A stretch of DNA of 63,262 bases, the filler included, from Streblomastix strix (lineage: Eukaryota): NCBI GenBank assembly GCA_008636045.1. It is 3 parts of 3 records of this genome, joined end to end, with 100 filler letters (N's around TTAATTAATTAA, not from the genome) between each part and the next. Parts side by side here need not be neighbours in the genome. Positions count along the whole stretch, not along the records: positions 42,286 to 63,262 come from SNRW01000402.1; 2 more parts are not named here. The stretch is one strand, 5' to 3'. Positions 42,559 to 45,500 of the stretch are shown here, in pieces. Within the stretch, counting starts at the first letter, position 1. The number at the start of each line of letters is the position of its first letter. Under the pieces are notes generated by a model. It saw only the letters and a list, made by a program, of their open reading frames with translations. It was not told where the DNA came from and made no database searches. The translations under genes were made by a program, and so were the position numbers.

Positions 42559-45500
42559 ATGACTCACAACAACATATCAGAATAATTTGAATGGTTATAG
42601 AAATAATAGAACCCCTATTGGTTACATTGGTAGACATAAATAAGTACATTTTAGAATAAATAAATAAAGGATTAAACAGACAATTTGACTCCTATTCAGG
42701 GAATCAATGAAATAATTAATTCTTCAGAATATCAGAAGATTATCGATAGAATGAAAACCTGTAATAGGAAAGCTTCATTTGAATAAGAGTTTGCTCTTTT
42801 CTTATTATTACAATATTTTACTTGATTTTATTGTGAATAGCCCTATGAAAGCACTCAAAAATACCACAAACTAATAAATTTAATAATAGGAAATTTTAAA
42901 AAGTCGAACAAAAAATGAGGTTTAGAATTCTACTTTATCTTCCACATAATCATAATTTAAAGCTACTTCCATACAACCCCAGTTTTAAACAACTTCCGCT
43001 TAACTATCATTTTAACCAAAATACTAGTCAATTCAACAATCATTATAATCATCTCAATTAAAAGTACTTAATCTTTAACAAGCGAACAACAAATCTGAAA
43101 TTAATAATAAGAATTTTTCTTTTATTGGTGAAACTGTTCAACTTCTTAACTCATCTGTTGATTAATTTCTTGGATAATTAAAAGAAGGTTAATTATAACT
43201 AGGTCAAAATGACTTTTAAACTCAATTGGATCAACTAAAAAGTAAAATGAATGAGTTGTGCGAAGTTCTTACTTTATAATCATCAAAAAATTCTTATTAA
43301 TCTACATCACATAATAATAATTAGTCAATGTCCGAGAATGGAAATTCAACATTACATTCAAATAATTTATTATTTCCTTAGATATAAACTTACTAAAATT
43401 AGTAGAATTTATAAGAATAATAATAAATACCATTTTAACAAAAATTCAACTAATATTCAAATAAATAAACTCCTTCTCTTCACATATCTTAATTATTACC
43501 ATAATATTCATCATCTTCTTCTTCTTCTTCATCATCATCATCATTTAATATATAAGAAGATATTACTGGAGTGATGAATCAATATGAATAAGCCTAAGAA
43601 TCTGAATATAATGAAAATAATGGAAATATAATTAATAACTATAATGGACATAATGGAGGTTTTTAAGGTAAACAAATTATGAATACAAATAAAATTGAAA
43701 TATAATAATAAGAAAATAGAACTATTTTAAATAATATTATGAAAGAAAAGAATATAAATGATATAAATAGCAATTCTGAATCAAGATCGAATAATGAAAT
43801 AAGATGAAATTTTGATAATTAAAACAAAATTAATACAAATATAAAATAAGATTTATGTAATGACAGTGAATTTTCTTTTGATTCATAATAGCAATATTTA
43901 ACATCAGTTGATAATGATACAACTAATTAAAAAGATAGATTTTAATAATAAAATTAGATTGGAAGTACAATTCCATTAGAATAGCAATTGGATATGAACG
44001 AAATAATTCAAATTAATAGATTTAATTCAAATAATTAAATTAAATAATTGAATTAATCAAATAATTAATAAATAATATATAATAAAGAAATAAATAACTA
44101 GTAAATAAGTAATATTGGAAATGGAGATGATTTCGATAATGAAGATACAAATACGTAATAAATATAGAATAATGAAGGTTGTACAGACAATAATAATTAT
44201 ATTTAATAAGGAATAAATGATGGAGGATAAAATACAGCTACTATCTGGATGGGTGAATTTCCATGGACATAAATTCTGTATTAAAAATTAAGAGAAGTAT
44301 TTGGACATAGAACATTTAGAGAGAATTAGTTAGCAATAATTAATGCAATATTATCAAATAAAGATTGTTTTGTATTAATGCCAACAGGAGGAGGAAAGTC
44401 TTTATGTTATTAATTACCTGGAGTAATGTTACCTGGATTAACAGTAGTTGTATCTCCATTGATATCATTGATATAAGATTAAGTAGAATAGTTAAGAGCC
44501 TTAAGTGTAGAAGCTGATTTTCTTTCCTCATAGCAAGATCCGGAGACATCTTGACACATTATGAGAGATTTATAATAAGATCCTCCTTAAATTAAACTTC
44601 TTTATGTTACTCCTGAAAAGATTGCATAAAGTGATTTATTTTATAAAAGATTGTAATATCTGTATTCAAAATAACTTCTTAGTTTAGTTGTTATAGATGA
44701 AGCACATTGTGTTTCTTAATGGGGACATGATTTCAGACCTGACTATAGAAGACTCAGTATATTCAAAACAACTTTCCCCAATGTTCCTCTTGTTGCACTT
44801 ACTGCTACAGCCACATAGGATGTGTTGTAAGACTGCTTAAGGCATTTATGTGTTAGATAGGTATATTTATTTATTTAGATATATTAAACTAAACCTATTA
44901 TATTTTCACTTCTAGTAATATTATATTCTTCTTCATTTTATTTTTGTTAAATATATTTAGGTTGAAGTGTTTACACAATCATTTAATAGGACTAATCTAA
45001 GTTATGAAGTTAGAAAGAAGAATAAATAAACATTAGAAGAAATATCAGAATTAATCTAAGGCAAATATAGAGGGTAAAGTGGGATTATTTATTGTCTTGC
45101 CAGAAAAGAATGTGAAGAAGTTGCATAATATTTATAAAAAGAGCATAAAATAAAGGCAGAATTCTATCACGCTAATATGCAATAAGATGAAAGGGCATAA
45201 ACATAAAGAAAATGGACAATGGGGGATACTGATGTTATTGTTGCAACTATTGCATTTGGAATGGGAATAAACAAGGCTGATGTCAGATTTGTTATTCATT
45301 ACGCACTCCCTAAATCTTTAGAAGGGTATTATTAGGTATTTAAAATCAGTGTTTATGATTAATTTTTTGAATTTAGACATATTTTATATTATCATAATTT
45401 ACTTATTTGTGTATTATAATAGGAAAGTGGACGAGCTGGAAGAGATGGATTGTAATCTGACTGCATTCTTTATTATTGGCCAAGAGACAGAGGAAGAATT

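Follow-up and report, generated by a model that had tools for sequence, protein, structure and literature searches.

The stretch of DNA analysed here (the window; 63,262 nucleotides, filler included) consists of three Streblomastix strix contigs of ~21 kb each, joined by N spacers at 21076-21175 and 42186-42285 (44 N, a 12-base linker carrying stops of the standard code in every one of the six frames, and another 44 N). The GC content is ~27% across the window, and spliceosomal introns are present. Two genes, located on different contigs, carry in-frame TGA codons. One of these, at 25809..33735 on the plus strand, encodes a protein with EF-hand and WD40 domains (2,542 codons, four GT-AG introns, no frameshift), which we take to be CFAP337/WDR49-like. 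The other, at 42559..49183 and also on the plus strand, encodes a RecQ helicase of the Sgs1/BLM type (2,054 codons, five GT-AG introns, no frameshift). Internal TGA is absent from the eight other gene models, three of which (WDR5-like, kinase and TmcB) were fitted automatically and are approximate.

The remaining content of the window is varied. The first contig holds a decayed retroelement (7888-11150, minus strand; 37% GC) with Pfam RVT_1, a weak RNase H and then a likely tyrosine recombinase. This element is presumably DIRS-like, and as a query it retrieved no relative from viral contigs or prokaryote genomes. Kinase gene fragments with a weak Pkinase match (18364-18846, plus strand, and 20360-21075) lie in decayed DNA of the same contig. 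The WD40 (WDR5-like) gene at 22623-25263 (plus strand) meets no stop before ~400 further codons, unrelated, basic and of low complexity, which constitute an extension or a fusion. An open frame at 41182-42185 (plus strand), cut by the contig end, resembles a DDE/pogo-type transposase but has no Pfam match. On the third contig, a gene for a TmcB-like membrane protein (49346-56717, minus strand; ~2,340 codons, Pfam TPR_TmcB) and a gene for what we take to be an LMBR1-like membrane protein (57488-59388, plus strand; 511 codons, five GT-AG introns) are both without internal TGA. The intron-rich protein kinase gene at 59890-62386 (plus strand) is CAMKK-like by its motifs, and its C-terminal CaaX box is unusual for such kinases. 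Neither a tRNA gene nor eRF1 was found within the window.

The reading frames are open only under translation table 6 (TAA/TAG = Gln). As sense codons there are 738 TAA and 157 TAG per 12,203 modelled codons, and Q is the commonest residue opposite both in the homolog alignments. UAA and UAG are hence used as sense, as they are in the ambiguous nuclear codes that involve all three stops. TGA ends 10/10 modelled frames and is found in frame at a rate of 5/12,203 modelled codons (0.041%), against 111 TGG in the same set. A CaaX box must be C-terminal, and in the kinase gene (sequence and model) the box CVIL stands directly before the TGA at 62384..62386 (plus strand), which marks this TGA as a true stop. 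The ends of convergent genes lie 211 and 162 bases from each other, which hints at short 3′ UTRs.

Five in-frame TGA codons in two genes

The six internal TGA contexts listed in an earlier note on this DNA all exist (26001, 27032, 43805, 44552, 47138 and 40903). The gene models place five of them inside genes, and NI*VQ (40903..40905, plus strand) is either a gene end or a sixth internal TGA. The next in-frame TGA lies 24 codons on, and the 23 codons behind position 40903 have a coding score of +3.6 bits (in non-coding DNA the 95th percentile is 2.8 and the 99th 5.1). The DNA behind the nine other gene-terminal TGAs scores as non-coding (-2.8 to -12.7 bits), whereas that behind the five internal TGAs scores as coding. 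Among further candidates on the minus strand, 3043, 48021 and 48096 were dropped as they overlap plus-strand genes, and 11005 and 20617 as they lie in decayed DNA.

The RecQ gene has a Pfam DEAD match. Its best whole-protein oxymonad match is Blattamonas nauphoetae SGS1, with 54% identity over 549 columns and 62% in the domain. The internal TGA that the earlier note placed within 44519..44610 was recovered as codon 648 (44552..44554, plus strand), in frame inside the DEAD helicase domain. The alignment has no gap at this position relative to Blattamonas SGS1 or human BLM, and therefore the TGA is not within a small intron; such introns around 44552 or 26001 were rejected, there being no insertion relative to homologs. 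Opposite codon 648 Blattamonas has R and human BLM has T. Residues vary widely in this column, with R 26, N 21, T 15, Q 7, K 7, D 6, M 6, others 19 and W 0 in 107 of 120 homologs (the 13 dropped covered <380 residues). Codon 399 (43805..43807, plus strand) lies in a low-complexity N-terminal region with no alignable homolog residue, in one frame with an Sgs1/BLM-like N-terminal motif at 42559 upstream and with the helicase core downstream. The resemblance of the first residues to this motif ties the region upstream of 43805 to the helicase. A start downstream of 43805 is disfavoured by the same motif, for which a loose pattern matched 4/120 homologs. Codon 1374 (47138..47140, plus strand) is in a low-complexity C-terminal region, after which the same frame continues for 680 more codons with coding bias; because no homolog aligns here, the part past 47138 could formally be a separate in-frame gene.

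The EF-hand/WD40 gene matches Pfam WD40 and the PDB entry 8tid_Z, "EF hand protein" (E 2e-22). Homologs of the protein occur in Monocercomonoides, Blattamonas and S. strix. In an unrooted tree of six sequences it clusters with KAA6394508 of S. strix (bootstrap 90), and identity to the S. strix homologs is 38-54% over the WD40 core. Together with the TAR=Gln frames, these matches fit an oxymonad of or near the Streblomastix lineage. A word search with the WD40 part found no protein, and the 1,413-residue single-exon protein is absent from the protein collection searched. Codon 65 (26001..26003, plus strand) falls in the entering helix of an EF-hand, and the homologous segment around it matches EF-hand proteins. 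It stands opposite K in Monocercomonoides and opposite R and K in two Blattamonas homologs (W 0/3). The second TGA, codon 350 (27032..27034, plus strand), is in a weakly conserved linker and opposite N in a weak MAFFT alignment; it failed the alignment filter and was left out of the residue counts and likelihoods discussed below. Another S. strix protein, KAA6404025, looks truncated, but its end aligned to no informative column and it was set aside. In the EF-hand/WD40 gene, codons 86 and 1045 are CGA opposite homolog Gln (2/7 aligned CGA codons), one of them opposite Q in all five homologs. Coincidence or relaxed selection may explain this, or a drift from CAA to CGA that mirrors the one from TAA to TGA.

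The internal TGAs share no motif or fold behind them: the +4 bases are T, A, A, C and T, and the fold z-scores range from -1.5 to +0.3. They are skewed toward the 5′ ends of the genes (P=0.036, post hoc). Programmed readthrough, which involves a single stop near the C-terminus in a leaky context or with a 3′ stem-loop, does not describe several mid-gene TGAs with no such context. Selenoproteins, in which UGA stands opposite a catalytic Cys and a SECIS element is present, were likewise rejected, with no C in the TGA columns and no Rfam match within the window.

Intact genes, decayed copies or miscalled bases

Across the 4,596 codons of the two genes there are five internal TGAs and no frameshift, and 9/9 introns are GT-AG. 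UGA is, in other words, found inside otherwise intact genes, as in the ambiguous codes that involve all three stops. Neither gene has pseudogene marks (frameshifts, lost splice sites or lost invariant residues), although such marks may be missing from a young pseudogene (P up to 0.048). In RecQ, 2/141 conserved columns (kept in at least 90% of the 107 homologs) differ from the consensus, where the homolog median is also 2; both changes are shared with Blattamonas and none is private. No TGA stands at any of the 9 invariant Arg that the RecQ core retains, or at an aligned conserved Trp. In the WD40 core, 4/48 otherwise invariant columns deviate, and the five homologs span 6-25%.

The most serious objection is that the two genes are defective alleles or dead copies in which nonsense codons have accumulated, TGA being nothing but a stop. 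Under code 6, TGA is the sole nonsense codon and 2.6-4.1% of substitutions create it, and all five TGAs are within 2/12 genes (P=0.038 if uniform; two of the 12 were entered by estimated size only). Moreover, the dead retroelement on the first contig has ~7 TGA vs 3 frameshifts in a by-eye count, with frames followed partly from recall of such elements, and this excess suggests that decay here can favour TGA. Mutation with a CpG boost would derive 35-60% of the TGAs from Arg, and the invariant Gln of the WD40 gene that is CGA here is a change that decay could produce. However, the joint chance of no frameshift and no invariant-column hit under neutral decay is 0.0005-0.048, a range that spans assumed frameshift-to-TGA ratios from 2.7 to 0.4, the low ratio being that of the by-eye retroelement count. 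The lack of an invariant-column hit is weak evidence alone (P 0.09-0.18). Non-coding CpG is not depleted (o/e 1.03; coding, 0.34-0.73), which weakens CpG-driven decay and CpG damage alike; with no CpG boost, random nonsense would face R/K at both domain sites with a chance of 0.02. Considered together, these points make decay unlikely, but it is to be taken seriously.

Errors in the consensus, from C-to-T damage or from CpG miscalls in amplification or base calling, would offer another explanation. A process confined to CpG would yield TGA from Arg alone and mostly spare invariant columns (P 0.30-0.44). It would, however, have had to convert ~8% of CGA (5/65), in DNA with the undepleted CpG noted above, open frames of >1,800 codons and an otherwise clean consensus; general C-to-T deamination is rejected (P 0.002-0.016). 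We regard such errors as improbable. Metagenome, viral-contig and prokaryote-genome scans returned no second copy or close relative: a degenerate pattern around the RecQ TGA gave 0 matches in the metagenome scan, the 80 metagenome RecQ loci are each at most 53% identical, and a protein search gave no RecQ above 63% identity among the 240 matches listed. UGA is probably translated in these genes, whichever residue it specifies.

The residue opposite TGA

Residue counts were taken with one homolog per gene and for two well-aligned domain sites (RecQ 648 and EF-hand 65). In these alignments R/K is faced by 34/57 Arg, 9/73 Gln and 1/20 Trp positions and by 2/2 TGA. The two-site likelihood of facing R/K is 0.35 for Arg, 0.017 for Gln and 0.005 for Trp, which makes Gln ~21-fold and Trp ~70-fold less likely than Arg. 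BLOSUM odds are concordant (R:Q 8, R:W ~125); Lys is next in BLOSUM score, but none of its codons is a single change away from TGA. For random nonsense with AT-biased mutation, the two-site likelihood is 0.02, 0.07 and 0.16 with no, a 10-fold and a 30-fold CpG boost, respectively. Two aligned sites cannot settle a code.

The earlier note had read the TGAs as Arg or Gln rather than Trp. The Arg part of this proposal agrees with both domain sites, where the oxymonad orthologs, to which the note pointed as a check, have R (Blattamonas RecQ) and K, R and K (the three EF-hand proteins); the Gln part is not supported. Under AT-biased spectra, random TGA mutations here would replace a Gln codon in 30-41% of cases and an Arg codon in 10-35%, so that "Arg or Gln" is by itself compatible with nonsense mutation. 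The parallel drawn between R*NFD and RRNFD is weak: RRNFD is present at 47582, but R precedes only 1/6 other NFD.

The usual form of ambiguous code (Condylostoma, karyorelicts, Amoebophrya) gives UGA the meanings Trp and stop. In its favour, the companion code (UAR=Gln) and the UGA rate match those of C. magnum, and 1/20 Trp positions here faces R/K. Nevertheless, W is found in 0/107 RecQ and 0/3 EF-hand homologs, and the aligned residues are not mostly Trp. The aligned conserved Trp are encoded by TGG, as the note had stated, and W faces 15/20 TGG positions vs 0/2 TGA. In this small sample, internal UGA does not stand opposite conserved Trp, and a Trp reading appears improbable.

Two further routes have been considered, editing of UGA to CGA (Arg) by U-to-C change in the mRNA, and reading of UGA by the reassigned tRNA-Gln. 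Editing accounts for the R/K columns just as well as decoding, but the sites share no motif or structure, and we know of no nuclear U-to-C editing in metamonads. The tRNA-Gln route is helped by TAA being the largest mutational source of TGA. Against it are the likelihood given above, the second-position mismatch it needs, and that the readthrough residues listed for UGA in the available parts of two reports are Arg, Cys and Trp, with Gln not among them (10.1101/2023.06.19.543857; PMC10089648). Taken as one, these routes are very unlikely.

Finally, UGA might be leaky everywhere, with a mixture of Trp, Cys and Arg inserted and with TGAs of any origin persisting where the residue hardly matters (surface or disordered positions). 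All five sites are indeed in variable columns or low-complexity regions, and the sparing of the invariant RecQ-core Arg and conserved Trp is as such leakiness predicts. Yeast places W, C and R at UGA, as the earlier note correctly stated; the proportions are 86% W, 7% C and 7% R. However, with TGA as Arg, the R/K residues at both domain sites have a 2- to 18-fold higher likelihood, and three leaky stops in one mRNA would need high efficiency and hence a dedicated decoder. General leakiness seems unlikely.

A candidate code and its known relatives

Collectively, the sequence data favour an ambiguous code in which UAA/UAG are Gln, rare UGA would be Arg far from the mRNA end, and UGA also ends genes; we put this reading somewhat short of an even chance. 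Slightly more tentative is the proposal of a nuclear code that reserves no codon for termination alone, where UGA as arginine or stop would be decoded by a tRNA-Arg and not by a short-stem tRNA-Trp. How we weigh all of these readings is a matter of judgement, based on the likelihoods and on a low prior for a new residue. Support for UGA=Arg is thin (two alignable sites, a third facing N, two sites without a homolog, and TGAs that are clustered), and the code is a testable lead, not an established one.

In this scenario, the internal TGAs would have arisen from CGA or AGA by one change. An arginine tRNA might decode UGA and would outcompete a weakened eRF1 at internal UGA; it could be a near-cognate tRNA-Arg(UCG) that pairs through U.G wobble at the first position, or a tRNA-Arg(UCA) with a mutated anticodon. 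Whether UGA terminates would be set by how close it lies to the poly(A) tail, a mechanism put forward for Condylostoma. If decoding is slow, the codon may stay rare and limited to genes of weak expression, and a slow codon would also be expected to cluster, as it does in Blastocrithidia (PMC12153298).

If UGA=Arg holds, it would fill a gap: near-cognate tRNAs insert Trp, Cys and Arg at UGA, and of these Arg is the one for which the literature consulted has no natural nuclear reassignment. An ambiguous code would then be reachable without a tRNA-Trp, and reassignment of all three stops would extend to Metamonada. It would also offer a naturally evolved suppressor of CGA-to-UGA, reportedly the most frequent premature stop in human disease, and gene prediction under table 6 would split genes in the Streblomastix lineage.

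TAR=Gln is the published code for S. strix and one unidentified oxymonad, in agreement with the window, and no internal TGA is reported in the accessible part of that study (PMC13002328). In the literature searched, mostly open-access main texts and including PMC11687900 and PMC10703272, neither sense UGA in oxymonads nor UGA=Arg is described. In the compared literature, as far as its available text goes, every ambiguous code has UGA=Trp, and natural nuclear UGA reassignments are to Trp or Cys (plus Sec). There is a close likeness to Condylostoma magnum, which with Parduczia uses UAR=Gln/stop and UGA=Trp/stop, and for which translation of UGA as Trp was demonstrated by MS and ribosome profiling (PMC4967479). 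The two systems share UAR=Gln, rare internal UGA (0.041% here vs 0.042%), UGA at gene ends and, probably, short 3′ UTRs. They differ in that the columns here point to Arg and not Trp, in lineage, and in the kind of evidence, which here is sequence alone; moreover, there is no sign in the window of UAR ending genes, unlike in Condylostoma and Parduczia.

Amoebophrya sp. ex Karlodinium veneficum has UAR=Gln and UGA=Trp/stop, with 72-83% of UGA facing W in strain comparisons (PMC6394959). As here, UGA is both stop and internal, and internal UGA is 5′-skewed; it is enriched in DNA-binding and motility genes. Unlike in Amoebophrya, W is opposite 0/2 domain sites here. Compared with basal UGA readthrough in yeast, the common element is that a near-cognate tRNA can place Arg at UGA. 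The yeast process is, in the texts cited above, of low efficiency and inserts mostly Trp, whereas here three TGAs share a single reading frame. Blastocrithidia combines UAR=Glu and UGA=Trp with UAA as stop (PMC12153298). It resembles the present case in having all three stops inside genes, spread non-randomly and avoided in highly expressed genes, and differs from it in the amino acids, in the terminator and in its tRNA-Trp with a 4-bp stem.
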